From a virus, in the IMG/VR virus record IMGVR_UViG_3300021518_000005, positions 1 through 64,000 of that record: a stretch of DNA of 64,000 bases. The stretch is one strand, 5' to 3'. Under the pieces are notes generated by a model. The model was not told the DNA's origin. It saw only the letters and a program-made list of their open reading frames with translations, and searched no databases. Within the stretch, counting starts at the first letter, position 1. Every line of letters starts with the position of its first letter. The position numbers were made by a program, and so were the translations under genes. Positions 1 to 42,497 of this stretch are shown here, in pieces.

Positions 1-3000
1 GAACCGGCCTTCTGCTATCCAGTGCAGAAGGCCGGTTCAACAGCGCAGCGGGCGCGATGGGCAATGCCACCGGCTTTCTAAGCAACATGCTTAGCACGGC
101 TGGTGGCTTTGTTGTGGGCGGGATTATTGAGAATCTTGCCGGGCAATTTGCGAATCTTGCAGGCGGAATGATCAGCGGGAATGCACAATTCGAGACCCTT
201 GAGGCATCATTTGCGACGCTTATGGGGTCTACAGATCGTGCGCGTGAACATCTCGCAATGCTGGCTGAGTTTGCCGCTACAACTCCATTTGAATTACCTG
301 AAGTGGCTCAAGCATCAAAACTACTCCTGACATTTGGCGGCGACGCACTCAACACATCTGAGAATCTGTCAATGGTTGGTAATGCCGCTGCCGCAACAGG
401 TAATGACATAGAAGGCGTCGCGTTTTGGGTAGGTCGCGCATACTCGGCCATTTCAGGCGGCCAGCCATTCGGGGAGGCTGCTTCTGAACTCCAAACGATG
501 GGTATTATGTCGGCCCAGACCCGACAGAAACTAGAGGAGTTGCAAGCAGCAGGGGCATCAAATGAAGAGGTCTGGCAAGCATTTACTGAACAAATTACCG
601 CGCCATCCGATGCCATGCAGAAGCTTGGTGAAACATTCACCGGGCGCATGTCTACACTACAAGATAATCTGTCGTTATTTTCGAGAACAGCCGGTGAATC
701 GTTATTTGCTTTTGCAGGTCAAGCTGTCGCCGCATTTAATAGTCCTGAAATTCAAGCAGCCCTGCAAGCATTTGCAACTAATGTTAACACCTTCATTGGT
801 GGGGTGATTACATGGTTAGTTGAGACCGCAATTCCGTGGCTTGTGGCGGCGTGGGCATTATTTGCACCTGTTGTTGCAAGTGCCATGACGGTACTGACAA
901 CAGCATTTGCATCTGTTCAAACAGCTGTGTTGGGTATGTCCGAAATAGTTTCAGGTGTGTTGGCAACCTTCGCCGAAACAATCATAGGGCCTCTGGGAAG
1001 TATAGAAGGTCTATTGGGCGCATTAGGTGGTGGACTTCTTGCGTTTGGCGCTCTATGGGCAGCACCAATCCTCATTGGTGCTATATCTTCTTTTGGTGTA
1101 TTAGTGTCGGGTGTTTTGGCTGCACTTCTTTCGCCCGTCGCGGCATTAATAGCCATTGGCGCGGTATTCGGCTCGATGTGGGCAACCAATTTTATGGGCG
1201 TGCGTGATAACACGACCGCCATGTTAAGTGCTATTGGCGATGCCATTTCAACCACCATAGGATTCTTAGGGCAGGTCATTGCCGATCTTGCACCTGCATT
1301 CCAAGCATTCATTGGCAACATGCAGGGCTTGGCACCAGCAGCAGCAGGTATCTTCAATTCTATCCTAAGCATTGTGCAATCGGTGTTTTCGGGCATTGCT
1401 AACACCATTGGCTGGTTCGGGCCGACAATGAGCAACGATCTTGGTACCTGGTTCATGGCTGCACAGGAAATTGTCAGTGGTGTTCTTGCAATCATTTTGT
1501 CAGTTGTGCAATCGGTGCTGTCGGTGGTACAGGGCTTTATTAGTGAACATGGTGCAAGTATCGCAAATTTGTTTATGCTCGCCTGGAATACCATTAGTGA
1601 TGTTATCAATGTAGCACTTGCCATTATCAATGGCGGCATTCAGAGTCTTTCTTTTGTTGCCGCATTCATAGCAAATCACACTGATACAATTACAGCGCTG
1701 TTCAGTGGTGCTTGGCTTGTGATTCAAGGGGTTATTACTGGCGCATTAAACATCATCCAAGGACTCATTAAAACCTTTACGGGAGTTCTTACGGGTGACT
1801 GGAATACTGCATGGGAGGGCATTAAACAGGCAACAAGCGGCGTCTTGGAAGCGCTTCATGGTGTAGTCGGGGGCGCTCTTACAGCGCTTGGCGGGGCAAT
1901 TAACCTTGCTATTGGCGGTATTGCGTTAATTGCCAATAGCCTCGGTGCGAATATTTCCGATGGTATTGTACAGGGCATTCAGAATGGTGTACAAGCCATT
2001 GTCGATGCTGCTGTAAGTGCTGCTAGTTCCGCGTTAGAAGCGGCTAAGAACTTTTTAGGCATTAAATCGCCGTCGCGTGAAGCTGCTGCACAAATCGGCG
2101 AGCCATTTGTGATGGGTATTGTAGGTGGCTTAGAAGCCATGACCCCATTACTCATTGACTCTGTTCGCACACTCGGCGATGAAATGCTTGAGGAACTGCA
2201 AGCTATTAGCGATCTTGCTACTGAGATCATGATGGACTCGGCGCGATCTACGCTCAGTGGCAACAAAAGCATGGCATCGCGCAACAGTCAAAACACAAAA
2301 GCCTTGCAAGCCATGACCGTTGATATTGAAAAATATCAAGATGCGCTCGAAAAAGCAACAGTAGACATGGAAGCATTTGCCGATGAGACGGCTGCCGGAA
2401 TTGATAAAATTCGCGATAAATATAAAGAAAAGCTTAATGGCTTTGATGCGGCGGCATTTGCACAGGAAACAAGCACGGGTGTTGCAGATATTGAATCGGA
2501 AAACCGCGCTAAAACCGCCGATATTCAAGCAGATAATCCTATTGAGGCAATTGATCAATCGGCATACGATGCTGAAACACTTAAAGAAATTGAGGCTATC
2601 AAGCTACGAATAACGGATAAAGCAGCAGAAGAACTAGCGATTGAAGAGTATAAAATTAGCCGTGCTGAAGAATGGGCCAAGACAGCAGAAGAACATGCCA
2701 ATCAAAAGGCAACACTCGAAAAGAAACTAACCAATCAGCAAGTCAAATATGAGAAAGAACTAGCCGATTATCGAGCAAAGCGTGAGGCAGAATACCTCAA
2801 GCAAACGCAAGATGTAGCCGATCAGCGCGCCAAGATGGAACAGGAGATCGCCGCATACCAGGCAGATCGCAATGCTGATTTAGCCGATGCCAAAGCCGAT
2901 GAAAAGGCTGCTCGTGACGAACTAGCAGAACAAACAGCACTTAAGAATACGGTTGATCAGATCGCGGCAAGTGCGCGACAGGAGCTTGATACAGCGCGTA

Positions 3001-3722
3001 AGCAGGCTGAAGAGATGCGAAAGTACGACGCTGATCTTGCTGCCGATTATTACAATATGCGCTCGAAAGACATTCTTGACTTGGCTGATCTGCAAAAGTC
3101 GATTGCAGAAGCGCAACAAGAAGGCGATATGCAGCGTGTAGGCGATCTCAGCGCGCAACTCGAATTATTACGGCAAGAACAAGATGCCAATGCAAAGCTC
3201 TTTTTCTTTGATGCGCAAGCAGAAACCGACACAATAGGCGACGATTCAACGGCACAATTGCAAGAGTTGCGCGACAAGCTACGCAAAGAATTGACAAGTG
3301 ATACGGATGATTTAACCGAGACACAACGCGATCTGGCTGAAGCGCAAAAAGAACTTGCTGCATTAAAAAAAGAGCCTCCGCCTGAAAATGACAAGGAGAA
3401 GGAGGACAGGGCTGCAAAGCGCGACGCATTACAGCAAGAAATCGATCAACTCATTGCCGATCAAGCGCGGTACCAGCAAGAGATTGCAGCGGGGAATACG
3501 GCTATTACAGAAGTGGAAAGCCAGCTAACGGCACTCTTGGCAACTATCGGCAATACACAAAATGGCCTGGGTGCCATTTTGGATACACTCCTTCAGCAGC
3601 AAATAACAGCACAAAATACCCCAACAAACCAGATCGTGTATAACATTCAGGCCAATTACGCATATCAAGAAGAGCGCACATTACGCGATGACATTCTTCT
3701 TCTTGGTATGCTGAACGGGTAA
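1..3722 (+). CDS. Tape measure protein (likely 5'-truncated by the window edge)
   Basis: Frame is open from position 3 into the 57..3722 ORF. It has a TMP-like N-terminal region (FAATTPFELPEV), long Ala/Gly/Trp amphipathic repeats (TGDWNTAWEGIK), a GIKSPSR motif and an acidic coiled-coil C-terminus; tail genes follow. Confidence 0.9.
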   Translation, partial: TGLLLSSAEGRFNSAAGAMGNATGFLSNMLSTAGGFVVGGIIENLAGQFANLAGGMISGNAQFETLEASFATLMGSTDRAREHLAMLAEFAATTPFELPEVAQASKLLLTFGGDALNTSENLSMVGNAAAATGNDIEGVAFWVGRAYSAISGGQPFGEAASELQTMGIMSAQTRQKLEELQAAGASNEEVWQAFTEQITAPSDAMQKLGETFTGRMSTLQDNLSLFSRTAGESLFAFAGQAVAAFNSPEIQAALQAFATNVNTFIGGVITWLVETAIPWLVAAWALFAPVVASAMTVLTTAFASVQTAVLGMSEIVSGVLATFAETIIGPLGSIEGLLGALGGGLLAFGALWAAPILIGAISSFGVLVSGVLAALLSPVAALIAIGAVFGSMWATNFMGVRDNTTAMLSAIGDAISTTIGFLGQVIADLAPAFQAFIGNMQGLAPAAAGIFNSILSIVQSVFSGIANTIGWFGPTMSNDLGTWFMAAQEIVSGVLAIILSVVQSVLSVVQGFISEHGASIANLFMLAWNTISDVINVALAIINGGIQSLSFVAAFIANHTDTITALFSGAWLVIQGVITGALNIIQGLIKTFTGVLTGDWNTAWEGIKQATSGVLEALHGVVGGALTALGGAINLAIGGIALIANSLGANISDGIVQGIQNGVQAIVDAAVSAASSALEAAKNFLGIKSPSREAAAQIGEPFVMGIVGGLEAMTPLLIDSVRTLGDEMLEELQAISDLATEIMMDSARSTLSGNKSMASRNSQNTKALQAMTVDIEKYQDALEKATVDMEAFADETAAGIDKIRDKYKEKLNGFDAAAFAQETSTGVADIESENRAKTADIQADNPIEAIDQSAYDAETLKEIEAIKLRITDKAAEELAIEEYKISRAEEWAKTAEEHANQKATLEKKLTNQQVKYEKELADYRAKREAEYLKQTQDVADQRAKMEQEIAAYQADRNADLADAKADEKAARDELAEQTALKNTVDQIAASARQELDTARKQAEEMRKYDADLAADYYNMRSKDILDLADLQKSIAEAQQEGDMQRVGDLSAQLELLRQEQDANAKLFFFDAQAETDTIGDDSTAQLQELRDKLRKELTSDTDDLTETQRDLAEAQKELAALKKEPPPENDKEKEDRAAKRDALQQEIDQLIADQARYQQEIAAGNTAITEVESQLTALLATIGNTQNGLGAILDTLLQQQITAQNTPTNQIVYNIQANYAYQEERTLRDDILLLGMLNG

Positions 3723-28897: not shown

Positions 28898-29089
28898 GTG
28901 ATGATGGAAGAGAAATTGAAAACGGGTGAAGCGGCTCGATTGATCGGAGTCCACATTCAAACGATACGACGATGGGCAGCTGCGGGACTGATTAAGACAT
29001 TGACATTACCAAGCGGGCAACGGTTGGTCTATCGTTCGGAGGTGGAACGCATTGTAGGAAAACGTGAGCATGTGGAGAAGGCATTGTGA
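28898..29089 (+). CDS. MerR-like/excisionase HTH protein
   Basis: LKTGEAARLIGVHIQTIRRWAAAGLI...LPSGQR. Confidence 0.8.
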   Translation: MMMEEKLKTGEAARLIGVHIQTIRRWAAAGLIKTLTLPSGQRLVYRSEVERIVGKREHVEKAL

Positions 29090-29874
29090 ACGCCATTCGA
29101 CAAGACTATGCACAAATTGAACGCATTATGCTCCTTACGCGCAAGTTAGGGCCGGTTGAGAAAATTGTATGGAATGCCATGCGGTTATACGATTGGAGTG
29201 TGGGAAGTGTACATCCTTCGCTTGAAACGCTTTGTGAGGATATTAATGCCTGCAATCCTGACGATCTGGTTGATATTGAAACGGTTCGCCGAGCGACCAA
29301 GAAACTTGAAAAAGTAGGACTTATCACACAAGAAACGATCAAGCGCAGCGGCCAGCGATCATTTACGCGCTACATCATGAACGATATTCCCGCAAGTATC
29401 ACAGGCGGCGAACCTATTCCGCTGGTGTATCGAGAAGGTGGATGGTCTAATACCTCAAATAAACAAAAGCAGGAGCAACAGCAACCACGAGCGCAAGAGG
29501 CATCGCAGCAGAGCGTTACTGCTGTACCTGCCGCAAAAGAAGACTCGCTATGTGTAAGAACGTTCCGTGAAAGCTTGCAAGACATCGGTCTACCACGTCA
29601 TCTACATGACGATCAGAAGCGCCTCATTGACTCGGTAGAACCCGACGAAGTCCTGGCGTACACTATTCCACAGATCTGCGATGCATATGACGTTACTGAT
29701 GTGGATGTATTCATCGATCTGTATGTCGGTGGCAAGGATGCAGTAGATTGGTTTCTGGCTACTCGTTCGCAAAGAAAAAGCCCGGATGCTGCCAACATCC
29801 AGGCTTCCAAGTACTACCACGCTGCACAAGCACAAACACAAGCACACTCTTTAGACGATGAGCCTCCATTTTAA
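29086..29874 (+). CDS. HTH replication-initiator-like protein
   Basis: HPSLETLC...TVRRATKKLEKVGLI winged HTH; acidic DDEPPF tail; adjacent to the iteron region. Confidence 0.6.
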   Translation: MNAIRQDYAQIERIMLLTRKLGPVEKIVWNAMRLYDWSVGSVHPSLETLCEDINACNPDDLVDIETVRRATKKLEKVGLITQETIKRSGQRSFTRYIMNDIPASITGGEPIPLVYREGGWSNTSNKQKQEQQQPRAQEASQQSVTAVPAAKEDSLCVRTFRESLQDIGLPRHLHDDQKRLIDSVEPDEVLAYTIPQICDAYDVTDVDVFIDLYVGGKDAVDWFLATRSQRKSPDAANIQASKYYHAAQAQTQAHSLDDEPPF

Positions 29875-30162: not shown

Positions 30163-31218
30163 GTTTGTGTAAGAACAAGCGCACACGAAAGGACACGGCA
30201 ATGTACACGAAAGAAATCAAGTACGACAACATCACCAAGGACTTTGCCGCCTATCTCAATGGCTCACTTGTCGGCTTCTATCCTGATTACCAATCAGCCG
30301 AACAAGCACTTGACGCTCTCGTATATAAGGCGCTAACCGTGGAGGTGCTGTAATGAGCAAGGAACTGTGCAATTGGTACTACGACTTCACCGAGGATAAG
30401 CAGTACACCAGCGATGATGAAGGCTGCTTAGTGCAGCTCTGCTGCAAACATGCACGCGATCCATTAGCTGCTGGTGACATTCAGTGGGCTTCACGCGGCG
30501 ATGAGAGTACCAGCTGTGAGCATCACGGCTGTACGGCACACAATAACCCACAGGGGCGATGAACTTAGCGAGCGCGGTAGTTGCGGCTGCCGCGCTTGAT
30601 ACCAAACAGGAAAAACAGCAATGTACAAAATTGGCGACTCACTCCTGACATGGGACGGTGTTGTATTCACAGTCAAAGGCGTGCAACGCGCTGAACAGGT
30701 ATATCGCGGCGATAGTGGTATCTGGTGCCACGAAAGCGATATTGTGTGCAAACTGGACATGCCAGCTTCACAGCATCGCGAAGCACTTGAAAGAGAAATG
30801 CGGATGGCTCTGGGCTGGCTGTGGGCAAAAGGGCAGCACGGTCTAGTCAAGCGCATTGAGAGTAACAAAGGTGTAGAGTTTCTTCGCCAAGTTGATCACC
30901 TGATTGATATTCTTGATCACGTTCCTGCTCAGTGGAACATGCCGATTAATTGGCCGAAGTCGTTACGCAAGCTCATTATGATGGAGGAACCTGTATGTAC
31001 GCCGTAGGTGATCATGTCCTTGGTATCGACTACACCGCGTTTACCATTAGCCGCGTCGAGAGCGACGACAAGGAGGTAACGTATCATCGCATGGGATCGC
31101 GCATGCGGTATACGGCGAATGTACACAAAGGGCATTTTGACTATGCTTGAGCAGATTCGGCATCCCACAGCTAGGATGCACTATAACTGGATACAAGCAC
31201 TTTGGGGGGATGTGCAGC

Positions 31219-31737
31219 GTGCCTAGCACGCCAACGCACGACAGAATAACGATTATCGCCGGGGCGCTCCTTGCTCCGGCGTATTCGTTTGCGCAGCAGC
31301 ATGCAGGCAATGAACATGCTGCAACATTGGGCCTTATCGCTGGCACCAGTTGTATTGTTTCAGGACTATGGTTCAGTCCTGATCTTGACCTTGACAGCTG
31401 GATACATCATCGTTGGGGCGCGCTAGCAGCACTATGGAAGCCATACAAACAGCTTGTACCGCATCGCCACTGGGTAAGTCATGGCTTTGTTATCGGCGCG
31501 CTGCTCCGGCTTGTGTATATTGCGTGCATCCTGTTGATTGTAGGGTGCCTGTACAGCCTTGCTGTAACACGAGGTCTTGCATTGGCGGGGATGTGGGTAC
31601 ACGAAATTGCAGCCGCCGCTGTACGGCACTCTGATGCGTTTTCCGCTGCGCTTTTTGGCTTCATTATTGGCAGTGACGCACATATTGCAGCCGACGTTAT
31701 TAGTTCCTCGTGGAAGCGCCGTAAGCGATTGACATGA
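31219..31737 (+). CDS. DUF2227-like metal-binding membrane protein
   Basis: PS..THDRIT, FSPDLD, RWG....LW.PY....HR..VSHG and H..AD motifs. Confidence 0.75.
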   Translation: MPSTPTHDRITIIAGALLAPAYSFAQQHAGNEHAATLGLIAGTSCIVSGLWFSPDLDLDSWIHHRWGALAALWKPYKQLVPHRHWVSHGFVIGALLRLVYIACILLIVGCLYSLAVTRGLALAGMWVHEIAAAAVRHSDAFSAALFGFIIGSDAHIAADVISSSWKRRKRLT

Positions 31738-31791: not shown

Positions 31792-32790
31792 ATGGCAGCA
31801 TCGCAATCGAGTCAAGCACTCAGTCTGTTCACGTTCGACACAAGCATTTTATCGACGGCAGAAGCACAGCACGCGCATAAGATCGGACTATTGACAGCCA
31901 AAAGTGAGGCCCTACACAGCGCACAGCGCCTTGTAGGGGTGGGTCGGCCTTTGCTCTTTGGCGTCCTTCTCGTAAGTTTTGTCCATCTCTGGCACACAGT
32001 AGCATCAATTAAGCCAGGAGAAGTGCAGGATTTAGAACTGTGGGGATGGATCTATCACGTTGCAGCTGCGCTTCTTATCCTCTCGATTGATGCGACTGCT
32101 GCCTATCTGGTATCGGTTCGTGGTACAGCTCGTTATGCTGGTGACACGCGCCCTAATCATGTGGTCATCTTTTTTTACGTGCTTACAGGCATGCTCAATT
32201 TGCTGTTTGTGATGCGCTACAGTCCAGGACTGCCCGATATGGTTGGGGATTTTTTGCCGTTCCTGTCATTTGCAACAGGATTGTTACTTGCTCCACTTAT
32301 TCCGGTGAGCGTGTGGGCCATCGAGCACGCACGGCAAACAGCGGATGCGGCTCGACTTGCGTTACTCGTTGAAGTGACAACATTGAAAGGCATCATCCAA
32401 GCATCGAAAAACAAGGAGAAAGAGCAACACGAGATGAGTGTAAACGAACTTGAGGCATTGCGCGCTGAATTGCAGGCTGCACGGGAAAATGCAGCGCAAC
32501 TGAATCGTGAGAAGCAGCAGATTATGATCGAGTTACAGGCAGAGCATAATCGTGTTGTAGCGCAACAGCAACACGCACCGCTGATTACAACACGCTTACC
32601 AGTGGAGCGCGGGAAGCCATCCAAGCGCGATGCCGTGATTGCACTATTCGAGCGATACAATCATCAAGGCATATGGGTTGATGGATGGAGCGCAAAGCGC
32701 ATCGCCGATGAAGTATCGACCGATGCGGAGCCGGTAACAGCGCAGCGTGTCAGTGAGTACATTAGCAAATATAAGAAAGTGAGCGGATAA
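31792..32790 (+). CDS. Spd-like membrane protein (4 TM + coiled coil + C-terminal HTH)
   Basis: Four hydrophobic helices, a coiled coil (ELEALRAELQAARENAAQLNRE) and a terminal HTH (WSAKRIADEV...TAQRVSEYISKYKK); GGAGG RBS. Confidence 0.55.
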   Translation: MAASQSSQALSLFTFDTSILSTAEAQHAHKIGLLTAKSEALHSAQRLVGVGRPLLFGVLLVSFVHLWHTVASIKPGEVQDLELWGWIYHVAAALLILSIDATAAYLVSVRGTARYAGDTRPNHVVIFFYVLTGMLNLLFVMRYSPGLPDMVGDFLPFLSFATGLLLAPLIPVSVWAIEHARQTADAARLALLVEVTTLKGIIQASKNKEKEQHEMSVNELEALRAELQAARENAAQLNREKQQIMIELQAEHNRVVAQQQHAPLITTRLPVERGKPSKRDAVIALFERYNHQGIWVDGWSAKRIADEVSTDAEPVTAQRVSEYISKYKKVSG

Positions 32791-32990
32791 TGAGACATAT
32801 CGTATTCTGGTTTGTTGTCGTGACATTGTGCCTCATCACACATGTGTTTGGTATCGAATTAACACATACATATCTCTTAGGTGATCGGCAGGATATGTAC
32901 ATGCTGGCAGTTACGATATGGTTTACGCTTTTTGTGTGTATCATTGTACCGTTGTATGTATGGAGTGCTCATGAACGCACCAGAGAATAA
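32790..32990 (+). CDS. Small two-TM membrane protein
   Basis: Two hydrophobic helices; coupled to the upstream gene. Confidence 0.55.
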   Translation: MRHIVFWFVVVTLCLITHVFGIELTHTYLLGDRQDMYMLAVTIWFTLFVCIIVPLYVWSAHERTRE

Positions 32991-33609
32991 GGTTCAAACG
33001 CCCCCACATGGTTCAGGATCGCCAGTCATGCATGGCCCACGGGTTGCGCCTGTACGGGGCCACCAAGGGCAGCAGGCAACAAAACAGGCAGTAAAGCAGC
33101 AACCTGCTACCGCAGCGCCGCCTATACCGAATATGGATATTGCGAAGTGGAGCGGCGCGGTATTCTGGCTGTTTGGATTGACGCTCACGACCGCATTCAT
33201 ACACGGTCTTGCATTCGATATTCTTGTTAATCAATGGTATCGCTGGCCTGTAGAGATTGTGGTATCACTTGCACTTCAAGTGGCACTGACAAAGTTGGAG
33301 AGCCCGATCTGGCGCGGCTATGTGATTCACTTGCCCGGATTACTAGGGCTTGGCATTGACGTGTATATCAATCTGGCTGGTGCTTTTGCAATTGCCGATG
33401 GCATTGCAACATCTGAATCAACACGAGTGCTAGCGGGCTGGTACGGCTGGAATATGAATGAAATCAAGGCTGGAAACGGCTTTATGCTCACCACGGTATG
33501 TATTGCGGTGTTGATCGCCGCTCTGCCCGAGCTGTTATGGACACTGGATAAACGAGTAGCACAGTTTAAGCATGCGGTTCGTGGAAGGATGTATCAGAAG
33601 GAGGACTAA
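32971..33609 (+). CDS. Four-TM membrane protein
   Basis: GGAG RBS, Pro/Gln-rich N-terminus, four TM segments. Confidence 0.65.
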   Translation: MNAPENKVQTPPHGSGSPVMHGPRVAPVRGHQGQQATKQAVKQQPATAAPPIPNMDIAKWSGAVFWLFGLTLTTAFIHGLAFDILVNQWYRWPVEIVVSLALQVALTKLESPIWRGYVIHLPGLLGLGIDVYINLAGAFAIADGIATSESTRVLAGWYGWNMNEIKAGNGFMLTTVCIAVLIAALPELLWTLDKRVAQFKHAVRGRMYQKED

Positions 33610-33745: not shown

Positions 33746-35431
33746 ATGGGCCTAGAAGGATTTGTTGTTATATTTTTCTTTGTACTGTTTATTGTGCTGG
33801 TTATTCGCTCGCTTTTGCGGCCTGAGACCGCACACAGCGAATACAGCCGTGTAACGCCTACTACAATGCCTGTAGAGCGCGTTGACGTGGCTGAATATGG
33901 CAATCCAGCACTAGCCATCCTTGCATGGCTTTGGGCTGTATTTCGTATCGGTCTGTTCCATCTACAGCGGCGTCGGGAGAGGCCAGCACCAGCGATTACA
34001 AGCCAGGAATCTGTGTATGTTGTACAAGAGCGTGAATCTATGCCACGAGAGCGTGAGGCTGCATCAGAAATCCGGCAGCCGCAGGAAGTAAAGCAACCAG
34101 CACATCAGGCATCAGAAGGCCGTGTAAAGGACGTAGATACACGCGCAAACACCAAGGATCGCATGGCGCAGTTGCCAGCACATGCGCCCGATCCTGTTGA
34201 TGACACGCGGGATCGCTTGAATATTCCTGTGCTGTTTGACGGCACACAGTATCTCTATCATCGCATGGGCAGCGGCCACAAAGCTGTTCTTGGCACCACA
34301 AATGGAGGGAAGGGTAACTTTCTTCGCTACTATGCGCTTATGTCGCTCCTAGCAGGGCCTGAGAACATGCGGCTTGTCGTGTTCGATGCAAAGGGCGGTG
34401 CTGATTACTGGTGGATTCATCAGATCGATCATGCCGAACTGTATTTTACAGGCCCTGAAATACTCGATGAAGAAAAACCGATTGATGCACTTGAGGAAGG
34501 TCTCAAGGTGTATGTGCGTTTGATGTTGGAGCGCGGCCAAGCATTACAAGCCGCGCACGTAGAGAAAATTGATCTGTATAATGAAAAAGTAAGAAATGGA
34601 AGTGTAAATGGTTTTGAATGGCCGTACATTGTGGTTATTGTTGATGAAATTGCAGACTTCAGTAAAGAGGCAAAGAGTCTTGTCTCGACACTGACACGCA
34701 TGGGCCGCGCTACTGGTTTTGATATTCTCGTAGCAACGCAGCATGCTACTGTTGAGGCGATGAGCACACAGATCAGTCGCAACCTGACAAACCGTTTTGC
34801 TTTCCGCCTGAACAGCTCCGAGGGTACAGCCGTCGCCCTAGCGCGCACCAGCAATGATTACGGCAAGTATGAACCGAGCGTAATTGATCGGCCTGGTGTC
34901 GCCGTGTGGCGCGGCATGGGCGGCAATGAACAAATGGGTCTTGTTCCATTTGTTGATCCGCTGATGGATGGCTTGCTTGCACAGTTGACAAGCAAGTATG
35001 GCAAGTCAAGTCAAGCAAGTATGGCAAGTCAAGTACTTGCACAAGCAAGTGCAAAAACAAGTGTCGTGGCAAGTCGAAAACAAGTACTTGACTTGCACGG
35101 GCAAGGCGAAGCAAGTGACACACTTGACGACGATGCAAGTGCATACTTGTCTGAAGTACTTACCATACAAACGACTGATGCAAGTCAAGCAATCAGTCAA
35201 GGCAAGTCAAGGCAAGCTCCAGGCAAGTCAGAAGGAAATACAAAAACAAGTCGATGGCAAGGACTTGTTAACCAAGAAACACTTGCACAAGCAAGAGAGA
35301 CTGTGCAAGAGATGGGTGATAAGGTAGGCGTCGTGGAACTGGCTCAGGCATTGTATGGTAAAAGCACGGGTATCTATTTTTATGCAGCACAAGAACTTCT
35401 TGCATTGTTGGAAGGAGAAAAATTAACTTAA
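33746..35431 (+). CDS. FtsK/SpoIIIE (TraB-like) membrane-anchored DNA translocase
   Basis: N-terminal TM segments; Walker A GTTNGGKG; FDAKGG; Walker B IVVIVDE; RMGRATG..ILVATQ; RFAF; C-terminal gamma/wHTH-like helices. Confidence 0.85.
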   Translation: MGLEGFVVIFFFVLFIVLVIRSLLRPETAHSEYSRVTPTTMPVERVDVAEYGNPALAILAWLWAVFRIGLFHLQRRRERPAPAITSQESVYVVQERESMPREREAASEIRQPQEVKQPAHQASEGRVKDVDTRANTKDRMAQLPAHAPDPVDDTRDRLNIPVLFDGTQYLYHRMGSGHKAVLGTTNGGKGNFLRYYALMSLLAGPENMRLVVFDAKGGADYWWIHQIDHAELYFTGPEILDEEKPIDALEEGLKVYVRLMLERGQALQAAHVEKIDLYNEKVRNGSVNGFEWPYIVVIVDEIADFSKEAKSLVSTLTRMGRATGFDILVATQHATVEAMSTQISRNLTNRFAFRLNSSEGTAVALARTSNDYGKYEPSVIDRPGVAVWRGMGGNEQMGLVPFVDPLMDGLLAQLTSKYGKSSQASMASQVLAQASAKTSVVASRKQVLDLHGQGEASDTLDDDASAYLSEVLTIQTTDASQAISQGKSRQAPGKSEGNTKTSRWQGLVNQETLAQARETVQEMGDKVGVVELAQALYGKSTGIYFYAAQELLALLEGEKLT

Positions 35432-35930
35432 GTTTTTTCTGGAATGCTCAAAAAGGCCCTGAAATAGCCCATTTTGGGCGACTTAAGCCCCGCGAGATGA
35501 AACTTAAGTTTTTCTTTCGGGGCTTTCTTTTGGCTTTGTAGTCATTAAAATCGAGGCTTAAGTTTTTTATTAGGCGACTTAAGTTTTCCATGCGCTTTTC
35601 AAAAACTTAAGTCGCTTGTGGGCAAAAACTTAAGTTTTTGCAGACCATTTCAATCGGGCATAATCGTGTGCAGCAGACAAGAATCTCATGCTTGTACTTG
35701 ACTTGGCAAAAAACAAGTAGGGCAATGACTTGCACACTTGATACGCAATGCAAGTCAAACATTCTACTGGAACACTTGACTTGTTTTTCATCGAGCAATT
35801 CAGGCAAGTCAACTACTCATAAAGGCAAGTACAAAAACAAGTGAGGTGGCAAGTCCGGGCAAATCAAGTAGACAAGTCAAGCCTTGTTTCTTGACTTGCC
35901 AAAACAAGTACTTGACTTGTCTACTTGTCT
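34974..35930. repeat. Dense tripartite array of CAAGT/ACTTG and CTTAAG motifs
   Basis: More than 20 CAAGT/ACTTG copies at about 34980-35290, seven CTTAAG palindromes at about 35425-35640, and about 20 more CAAGT/ACTTG copies at about 35690-35930 (counted by eye). Confidence 0.85.
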
Positions 35931-36252
35931 AACGAGACAAGGCGCGTAACCTGCACAAGCGATATACTTTGTACTCCATGTCGCGCTTGCCTCGATTGCA
36001 ACTTGCACAGCACGCTACCACATTGGCCTCAGTATATCCGTGTCGATTATTCACACGATCAATACCTTGATATACAACGGTGTTGATTTTGTATTGCGGC
36101 TGGCAGTACACGCCAGATGGAGCACAGCCGCAGTAGTGGCACAGCTGCTGAATGAGTGTATCGAACACATCCATATCAAGCTCGAATGACAGATCACGGC
36201 GCTTTGCGTCATACTTGTAACGGCGGAAAAGATGTTTGACGACTGGCAGCAT
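35929..36252 (-). CDS. HNH-like endonuclease
   Basis: CHYCG...GIDRVNN..GY...NVVACCASCN..K. Confidence 0.75.
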   Translation of the reverse strand: MLPVVKHLFRRYKYDAKRRDLSFELDMDVFDTLIQQLCHYCGCAPSGVYCQPQYKINTVVYQGIDRVNNRHGYTEANVVACCASCNRGKRDMEYKVYRLCRLRALSR

Positions 36253-41312: not shown

Positions 41313-41392
41313 CAATTGCTTCGACCTGAACACAGTATAAATCAAACAACTTGATTGTTGAATGATAAATACCTGATATTTAGGTGATAATT
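41313..41392. repeat. Direct repeat copy 2 (promoter cassette)
   Basis: Near-identical to 40023-40102. Confidence 0.85.
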
Positions 41393-42497
41393 ACTCAGAT
41401 GTGTCCTGCAACTTCCTAGCCACATCCTCCAATGCGGCGCGCTCATCAGCGCTGTACGAATGGATGTACACGCGCTCCGTGATGCTGGTAGTGCTATGGC
41501 CGAGTACATCACGCGCCACTGTCGAGGCATACCCGCTTTGGGCGATAAGCGATGCTACCGCATGGCGAAGATCATGTAATCGGATCGATTGCGGCAGCCC
41601 GATTCGCTTCAAGTCGGCCTTGAACGACCGCCAGAGATTATGCGGGTTGTACGGTGTGCCAACTTCAGATGGAAATACAAGTTGATGATCTTTCCATCCT
41701 GGTGCATCGCGCTCCTCATTTTGCACAGCCCTATGCACCTCAAGTGTTTGTACAAGCCACGGCGCAAGCGGAAGCGTTCTAACACCGCTCTCGGTTTTTG
41801 CATCAGCAATATGCAGCGTGCCAGCTTGCATATCAACATCGGCCCACTTCAGCGCGATTAATTCGCCACGTCGAAGGCCGAGTGATGCGCCAATGACATA
41901 GAGTGCATAGCGCCGTGTACCGCGTGCGCCATCGAGTAGTTGTCGGATATGCTCAATGGATACCGGCTGCACTTTGTACTTTCTTGGTTTTGGCACATCA
42001 ACATGTTCAGCCACGTTCCGTTGCACCATTTCGAGACGTACACCGTCGTTGAGTGCTCGACTCAAAACACCATGCGCGTATTCGATGGTACGAGTACTCA
42101 AGAGTGCGTCACGTTTCTTAGAACGCTTGTCACGCAGTTCTGAGAGCCAATGCTGTATATCTTGTGGCCGGAGCTTTACAAGTTTGATATGGCCGATATG
42201 CGGCTCGATATGCAGTCGAGACATATCACGGTAGCTTTCGTAGGTTCGCGCCTTGCCTGGTTTGACCGTATGCTCTAGCCAATACGCCATGTACTGCGTG
42301 ACTGTCATTTTATTGTCGATTGGCTCAGAGCCACGATTAAGTTCAGCCAAGATATTCGCTTGCCAGGTTGCAACTTCCTTGCGTGTCTTGCCGTATTTCC
42401 ACTTGCGTTTCCCATTGCCAAGTGATACAGCTGCGTACCATGTCCCGTCTTTGCGCTGCCCAATAGTGCCTTCATTTTGACCGCGTTTCTTAGGCAT
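41391..42497 (-). CDS. int: Tyrosine integrase
   Basis: N-terminal RGQNEGTI arm-binding domain; GLRRGE, KT, HDLRH, LGHS and catalytic Tyr (TERVY). Confidence 0.95.
   Translation of the reverse strand: MPKKRGQNEGTIGQRKDGTWYAAVSLGNGKRKWKYGKTRKEVATWQANILAELNRGSEPIDNKMTVTQYMAYWLEHTVKPGKARTYESYRDMSRLHIEPHIGHIKLVKLRPQDIQHWLSELRDKRSKKRDALLSTRTIEYAHGVLSRALNDGVRLEMVQRNVAEHVDVPKPRKYKVQPVSIEHIRQLLDGARGTRRYALYVIGASLGLRRGELIALKWADVDMQAGTLHIADAKTESGVRTLPLAPWLVQTLEVHRAVQNEERDAPGWKDHQLVFPSEVGTPYNPHNLWRSFKADLKRIGLPQSIRLHDLRHAVASLIAQSGYASTVARDVLGHSTTSITERVYIHSYSADERAALEDVARKLQDTSE

Follow-up and report, generated by a model that had tools for sequence, protein, structure and literature searches.

What is the role of a dense array of short repeated DNA words that begins inside a phage gene and continues well beyond its stop codon? 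The question is raised by positions 34974-35930 (957 bp) of the window, i.e. the stretch of 64,000 nucleotides analysed here (bases 1-64000 of the 83,227-bp IMG/VR virus record IMGVR_UViG_3300021518_000005). The gene encodes a membrane-anchored translocase of the FtsK/SpoIIIE type (P0001), and the array consists of two blocks of the pentamer CAAGT and its complement ACTTG, separated by a block of CTTAAG palindromes. We consider it somewhat probable, by analogy with the clt sites of Streptomyces plasmids, that this field of ~950 bp is a clt-like cis-acting docking site for the DNA-transfer module of the pump. The features concerned are as follows.

33746-35431, + strand: gene of P0001 (561 aa), membrane-anchored FtsK/SpoIIIE-type translocase, PF01580
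34993-35285, no strand: block 1, 23 CAAGT/ACTTG sites (16 forward, 7 reverse), in the linker-coding DNA (aa 416-514)
35427-35634 (208 bp), no strand: central block, seven CTTAAG palindromes with the consensus aaaaaCTTAAGttttt or gcgaCTTAAGtttt
35696-35927, no strand: block 3, 19 CAAGT/ACTTG sites (9 forward, 10 reverse), non-coding
35929-36252, - strand: HNH / endonuclease VII-like gene (assigned by PHROG), convergent, forming the right border of the array

Two classes of repeated words in three blocks

Within the 957 bp, CAAGT occurs 25 times and ACTTG 17 times, giving a total of 42 sites, whereas the remaining 82,270 bp of the record contain 217, from which 2.5 sites per 957 bp would be expected. 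A 3,008-bp locus with the array at its centre has 49 sites, as compared with 8.87 ± 2.82 in 200 dinucleotide-preserving shuffles of the same locus, none of which reached 49. An earlier note on this DNA had reported about 40 such pentamers in both orientations and two blocks, and had proposed a k-mer enrichment check over the whole genome; the count (23 + 19) agrees with it, and the check shows the array to be unique in the record. The array is thereby confirmed as real and far above chance expectation. At least 93 stretches in IMG/VR contain a 15-nt word of the array, every listed stretch with one match, and the densest other locus among 132 loci has 14 CAAGT per kb vs 42 in the present array.

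CAAGT is the core of a longer word, A-R-R-CAAGT-V. Position -3 is occupied by A in 29 of the 42 sites, C is found at -2 in none and at -1 in only one, and in no case is CAAGT directly followed by T (0/42). The 9-mer ARRCAAGTV is present in 27 copies in the record, 19 of them inside the 957-bp region and the other 8 scattered; GGCAAGTC occurs in the region 7 times forward and once reversed, as compared with 11 copies in the record, and all three copies of CAAGTACTTG lie in the region.

Block 1 falls within the last 440 nt of the translocase gene and the other blocks lie directly past its stop codon, with block 3 filling the space as far as the stop codon of the convergent endonuclease gene; the 410 bp between blocks 1 and 3 contain no CAAGT/ACTTG site. 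Blocks 1 and 3 are related by duplication: they share a 65-nt direct repeat (35011-35075 and 35791-35855, 80% identity) and an exact copy of the 19-nt sequence AAAACAAGTACTTGACTTG (at 35077 and 35901). In block 1, the stretch 34989-35034 is an exact tandem repeat of a 23-nt unit. Helical phasing of the CAAGT sites was considered and rejected, the power at 11 bp (5.1-5.4) being weak and non-significant after some 40 periods had been tried.

The seven palindromes of the central block start at 35427, 35482, 35503, 35557, 35578, 35606 and 35629, with start-to-start spacings of 55, 21, 54, 21, 28 and 23 bp. They represent 7 of the 10 CTTAAG copies in the window and 7 of the 12 in the record, and all copies of ACTTAAGT (5/5) and ACTTAAGTTTT (4/4) are found in the region. 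The stop codon of the translocase gene (TAA, 35429-35431) is contained in the first CTTAAG, so that the palindromes begin at the stop codon with CAAGT blocks on both sides, at the positions noted earlier. The central block has a GC content of 0.40 vs 0.484 for the record. Moreover, T comes directly after AAGT (giving AAGTT) in 10 of the 14 palindrome half-sites of the core, and in none of the 42 flanking CAAGT sites. Since the two word classes occupy separate blocks and have opposite preferences for T after AAGT, they are mutually exclusive both in space and in their flanks. Outside the array, CTTAAG is mildly depleted (5 observed vs 8.4 by a Markov estimate and 21 by a zero-order estimate).

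Two foldable elements are located in the central block.

35487-35538, + strand: imperfect GC-clamped hairpin, the loop of which contains a CTTAAG; a T-rich run follows
35574-35615, no strand: palindromes 5 and 6 and their gcga flanks, which make up a perfect inverted repeat (arms of 14 nt, loop of 14 nt)

RNA folding of 35400-35700 gave a z-score of -4.33, with the hairpin at 35487-35538 present in both the minimum free energy and the centroid structures. This hairpin was not among the results of a simple terminator scan; it is probably the terminator of the translocase operon. The inverted repeat at 35574-35615 could be extruded as a cruciform or fold in single-stranded DNA or RNA.

Inside the open reading frame (ORF) 33746-35431, the word of block 1 is written in all three frames and on both strands, with 10, 4 and 2 forward sites in frames 1, 2 and 0, respectively, and 5 and 2 reverse sites in frames 2 and 1. 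When the 110-residue peptide was kept fixed and its synonymous codons were redrawn from the phage's own usage, 20,000 draws gave 3.09 ± 1.51 sites with a maximum of 10, as compared with the 23 observed; for the motor (ATPase) core, used as a control in the same resampling, 2 were observed vs 1.16 expected. With 23 sites in place of about 3 for an unchanged peptide, selection therefore acts on the DNA of block 1, and the Q/A/S/K/V/L-rich peptide is consequently a by-product of the DNA word. Two statements of the earlier note, that the first block lies in coding sequence and dictates a Q/A/S/K-rich linker and that selection appears to act on the DNA, are thus borne out, the latter by the codon resampling. 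Past block 1, the conserved tail of the protein stays in frame and aligns with the homologues P0006-P0008 through the motif LA..LY...FYAA. The locus is a clean natural example of a putative protein-binding code overwriting a coding sequence, and its two word classes and three blocks provide built-in controls.

The translocase P0001 and its family

P0001 matches PF01580 with 39.3 bits, above the gathering score of 24, and has two transmembrane helices (aa 3-24 and 54-77). In an AlphaFold2 model built on 33 family sequences, the predicted local distance difference test (pLDDT) values are above 90 for the motor core (aa 130-420), 30-54 for a linker (aa 421-502) and 81-94 for a C-terminal three-helix domain (aa 510-559); block 1, encoding aa 416-514, coincides with the linker. 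Among solved folds, the motor is matched best by that of E. coli FtsK (2ius, E 6.7e-17); next in rank are the conjugation coupling protein TcpA and the type VII ATPases EssC and EccC. An identical P0001 protein is on record from 2 contigs.

The C-terminal domain had been described earlier as a winged helix-turn-helix (wHTH). This is not established, since the domain models as three helices and the wing is absent from both structure models. In an exhaustive structural comparison, nearly all matches of the tail were DNA-binding helix-turn-helix (HTH) or winged-helix proteins at Z 4-6, values below 8 being common for small helical domains and within noise. FtsK gamma was among them (5dcf, Z 5.1, with a root-mean-square deviation of 1.4 Å over 44 residues; 2ve8, Z 4.6), its scores tied with those of many other HTH proteins. 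The winged-helix family PF25255 was hit with 22.4 bits, under its cut-off of 27, and PF09397 (FtsK gamma) was not matched in P0001 by Pfam. On the models, the tail may be described as a three-helix, HTH-like domain.

In an exhaustive HMMER search, 35 proteins that are 30-40% identical to P0001 were retrieved at E <= 1e-30, all built alike, with an anchor in the membrane, a motor, a linker that varies and a small tail of helices. In all 33 aligned family sequences, the P-loop is GKGN, not GK[ST] (window 34307-34318, P0001 aa 188-191), and G188-K189 and the Walker B residues D300-E301 are invariant in all 33, whereas distant FtsK-like loci mostly have a GKS/T P-loop. The tail motif LA..LY...FYAA is common to P0001 and P0006-P0008, while the other members possess a different tail, G.S.N.I...LGGNR...L..I. 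Exact tandem peptide repeats of at least 3 units were found behind the motor in 4 of the 33 proteins (P0021, VTP x3; P0022, EVR x3; P0024, ET x3; P0030, GT x3) and in none of the N-terminal or motor parts of the 33. These peptide repeats may reflect 6- or 9-bp DNA repeats in the linkers or tails; as P0001 itself does not score, this measure is a weak lead only.

DNA of relatives was also sought. No relative was detected in viral contigs scanned with P0001, the family alignment and P0006. Profile searches with a smaller family alignment gave 5 loci in genome contigs, all of distant FtsK, and at least 26 loci in metagenome contigs, those listed all being distant; a degenerate motor-motif pattern gave 2 loci, neither encoding a member of the P0001 family. 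In GenBank phages and PLSDB plasmids, only distant motors were found, with the best identity below 60% and no place covering 80% of the query. From the metagenome and genome contigs, 31 distant FtsK-like loci were taken as controls for the array and 29 of them were examined, the ORFs of the other 2 running off the locus. In the 950 nt surrounding the end of the gene, a count above 5 was reached by a 7-mer in only one of the 29, L034, in which CGGCGGC occurs 9 times in GC-rich simple sequence; no such 7-mer was present at 3 FtsK-like loci of GenBank phages.

A candidate docking field and the alternatives

In the sections of two papers on Streptomyces plasmids used here (PMC3583192, PMC4447253), clt is described as an array of short direct and inverted repeats adjoining the tra gene, with words of 7 bp in pWTY27, 9 bp in pJV1, 5 bp in pIJ101 and 8 bp in pSVH1. 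In pWTY27, clt shares 16 bp with traA, and a footprint of TraA was obtained on it; in pSVH1, TraB forms a membrane hexamer, and helix 3 of its C-terminal wHTH reads the 8-bp repeats. As far as these sections go, the present field is similar in having repeats of 5-9 bp in both orientations over and behind the 3' end of a gene for a membrane-anchored FtsK-like protein, and differs in that ~290 bp of it, not 16 bp, lie inside the gene. It differs also in possessing a second word class in a separate central block and in being carried by a tailed phage (with TerL, portal, capsid, tail and tape-measure genes) rather than by a conjugative plasmid or an actinomycete integrative and conjugative element (AICE) of Actinomycetota. 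We accordingly lean slightly towards regarding it as a very large, two-code analogue of the clt of Streptomyces conjugative plasmids. The identity of the binder, the pumping of DNA and its destination are parts of this reading that we infer.

The following course of events may be envisaged. P0001 would form a membrane-anchored FtsK-type ring, from which the three-helix tail domains, on flexible linkers of ~80-90 residues, would each read one copy of A-R-R-CAAGT-V; since such readers would be tethered independently, neither fixed spacing nor fixed orientation of the sites would be needed. With 42 sites in two blocks, the phage DNA could then be captured with high avidity at the membrane or septum, and the ring would subsequently load and pump double-stranded DNA. 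The central AAAACTTAAGTTTT palindromes, several of which are 21-23 bp (two helical turns) apart, would be read by a second, dimeric protein, and the same block also houses the terminator-like hairpin of the operon. The obvious candidate for the palindrome reader would be P0158, encoded upstream in the same operon, in whose translation we recognise several hydrophobic helices, a long charged stretch of heptad-like (coiled-coil-like) character and, at the C-terminus, a basic tail. The earlier proposal of two different binders fits the two word classes with their exclusive flanks; the part of it that assigned an HTH to the product of the gene at 31792, i.e. P0158, is not supported, no HTH family match being detectable in this protein.

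Other systems resemble the locus in part. FtsK gamma with its FtsK orienting polar sequences (KOPS), and SpoIIIE with its recognition sequences (SRS), likewise combine an FtsK-type motor and a small C-terminal domain on a flexible linker with a word of ~8 bp, the pairing being putative here, and three FtsK gamma domains read one KOPS. However, KOPS and SRS are dispersed and polar along the chromosome, while here 19 of 27 words are confined to 957 bp in both orientations; KOPS-like guide words were therefore rejected as an explanation. In the part of PMC4170104 used here, on pIJ101-type plasmids, SpdA2 is described as binding the sps palindrome, which is located within the spdA2 gene and imposes an SRDD/E motif on the peptide, so that binding sites embedded in coding DNA, with a stability phenotype, have been described. 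The likeness, on that account, is in short palindromes repeated at TraB/Spd-type transfer genes and in a peptide motif dictated by the DNA. In contrast, sps is there given as a 12-bp palindrome occurring 2-3 times inside the gene of its own binder, whereas the seven palindromes of the present field have a core of 6-8 bp and follow the pump gene in non-coding DNA. No SpdA-like protein was identified, although no comparison with SpdA was made, and between P0158 and SpdB there is no relationship. The actinomycete plasmid-prophage pZL12 (Zhong et al. 2010, as mentioned in PMC3583192) combines a phage cycle with a tra-type gene; so far as that mention goes, it is similar in being a phage-type element with a tra-type transfer gene and differs in being an actinomycete plasmid-prophage. 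In a literature search on phage or Chloroflexota FtsK/TraB systems, at the level of titles and listings, papers on Streptomyces clt, Spd and AICEs and on TdtA of Thermus came up, but none on a docking array for an FtsK-like pump of a tailed phage or of Chloroflexota. What is distinctive at the present locus is its size, the clean two-code layout in three blocks and the ~290 bp of overprinted coding DNA.

Several observations weigh against a clt-like docking site. The field of ~950 bp with 42 sites is far larger than clt as given in the published sections (50-175 bp with 3-9 repeats), and its sites are of mixed orientation with no polarity. P0001 has 26% identity with Tra of pIJ101 over 236 aa of the motor (E 9e-8) and is no closer in sequence to Streptomyces Tra than to FtsK generally; further differences from TraB are the absence of a modelled wing and the unusual GKGN Walker A motif, because of which the ATPase chemistry is not assured. 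Foldseek returned nothing for the tail at E <= 0.001, and the structural matches that were obtained are at noise level, as stated above. P0158 shows no similarity to SpdB of pIJ101 (best E 23), and other HTH proteins of the phage could be the readers. Finally, a comparable array was present at none of the 29 distant FtsK-like loci and none of 3 FtsK-like loci of GenBank phages. Since these control loci are outside the family, they show only that arrays are not general to FtsK-like genes.

Alternatively, the field might serve in positioning, stability or partition, in the manner of SpdA2/sps or of a plasmid centromere, and have invaded a tolerant linker of the pump; the candidate readers would then be P0158, the HTH_17 protein or the rep-like protein in place of the pump. 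Such a site seems unlikely, although SpdA2 offers a case of binding sites within coding sequence that have a stability phenotype, the two word classes suggest at least one reader other than the pump, and palindromes 21-23 bp apart would suit dimeric binders. No product of the ParA, ParM or TubZ type was found among ~45 products scanned (not every gene was scanned), and the phage has an integrase and an excisionase-type gene, so that partition is not obviously needed; moreover, the tight link to the 3' end of the pump gene matches clt. Thus, of the earlier suggestion of a clt-like or centromere-like array, the clt-like half is consistent with position and repeats of the published sites, while the centromere-like half found no partition genes among the proteins scanned to go with it.

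The field might also be a replication origin, with arrays of initiator sites around an AT-richer unwinding core; its position partly inside a gene would have a parallel in the lambda ori, which is written into gene O. Here the central block is indeed AT-richer than the record and is flanked by repeat arrays, strong hairpins are present at the field, and a rep-like gene (29086-29874) belongs to the same operon; because of the AT-richer core in particular, an origin is kept in consideration at a low probability. Iteron origins typically have direct iterons of ~17-22 bp adjoining the initiator gene, together with host DnaA boxes. In contrast, the present words measure 5-9 bp and are found on both strands with no common orientation, the array lies between convergent genes with its start at a distance of 5.1 kb downstream from the rep-like gene, and no DnaA-box-like site occurs in it (20 in the window vs 17 expected, the nearest at 36047). 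A classical iteron origin was rejected on these grounds, as was an origin signal in the GC skew, which merely tracks transcription, and an origin of any kind is in our opinion improbable. A packaging site (pac/cos) was also rejected, TerL being encoded ~35 kb away from the array. It is highly improbable that the field is a transcriptional feature only, i.e. a bidirectional terminator or attenuator, or a decoy array titrating a regulator. The convergent genes, the terminator-like hairpin with its T-run and the fold z-score would agree with this, but a 9-bp word in 42 copies, with 23 copies in three frames of the upstream gene, is not required for termination. No Rfam family reached its gathering score inside the array, which likewise argues against this explanation and led us to discard a known RNA element as a candidate. 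Lastly, the repeats might have no function and be due to expansion by slippage or duplication in a tolerant linker and spacer, or to misassembly. The exact tandem 23-mers and the 65-nt duplication do show growth by duplication. Nevertheless, irregular spacing, both orientations and constrained flanks (T at +1 in none of 42), as well as a codon choice strongly bent to the word, are at odds with an absence of function, to which we give hardly any credence. An assembly artefact is unlikely, given that the reading frame is uninterrupted over 23 sites and continues into a conserved domain modelled with confidence, and that the identical protein is known from two contigs.

If the clt-like docking site is accepted, a more specific picture can be drawn, which we consider doubtful. 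A temperate tailed phage of filamentous Chloroflexota would move its double-stranded genome between neighbouring cells of a filament without virions, by means of an FtsK-type pump, from a phage-borne clade with a GKGN P-loop, loaded at a 950-bp two-code field that partly encodes the pump's own tether, with P0158 reading the central palindromes and marking the entry point. If the field is the docking site of the pump, double-stranded DNA transfer of the Streptomyces style, with one protein plus one cis site, would exist also in tailed phages outside the actinomycetes, and phage genomes could spread along bacterial filaments without particles.

Neighbouring genes and phage context

The array is situated at the end of a + strand operon encoding, in this order, the HTH_17/MerR protein, the rep-like protein, the DUF2227 protein, P0158, P0159 and the pump. 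Other features of the record are included in the list.

57-3722: tape-measure gene
28898-29089, + strand: excisionase-type HTH_17/MerR gene (E 2e-7 to 1e-9)
29086-29874, + strand: rep-initiator-like HTH_36 gene, its start overlapped by the HTH_17/MerR gene
31147-31737, + strand: DUF2227 'metal-binding' protein (E 1.5e-36), encoded shortly before the membrane proteins and the pump
31792-32790, + strand: P0158 (332 aa), in the translocase operon, putative second, dimeric binder
32881-33609, + strand: P0159 (242 aa), membrane protein encoded between P0158 and the translocase, with no family in Pfam or PHROG
41391-42497: tyrosine integrase
70885-72138 of the record: large terminase (TerL), ~35 kb from the array

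P0158, like P0159, has no Pfam or PHROG family. The convergent gene at 35929-36252 matches PHROG 3322, 3118 and 1035 (E 1e-12 to 5e-11). Weaker PHROG matches of this gene are to the Srd and sigma-70 decoy families, and Pfam gave nothing at E <= 0.01; the end of this HNH / T4 endonuclease VII-like gene coincides with the end of block 3.

The genes for the large terminase, portal, major head and major tail proteins are located at 70.9-82.3 kb of the record, which also contains genes for a tail fibre, a DnaB-like helicase, a sliding clamp, a ribonucleotide reductase and a methyltransferase. The record is that of an ordinary temperate tailed phage, inside which the HTH_17 gene, rep-like gene, membrane protein genes, pump gene, array and tyrosine integrase gene stand in an AICE-like order. 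The Atlas neighbours of P0001 and P0158 are mostly viral clusters, with one Chloroflexota cluster each, a weak hint at a host among the Chloroflexota. Palindromic hexamers are extremely avoided in the record: 18 of the 64 are absent from the 83 kb (17-21 copies of each being expected) and 23 of the 64 have at most 2 copies, as compared with 28 absent among the 4,032 non-palindromic hexamers. This avoidance points to a host with many type II restriction systems.

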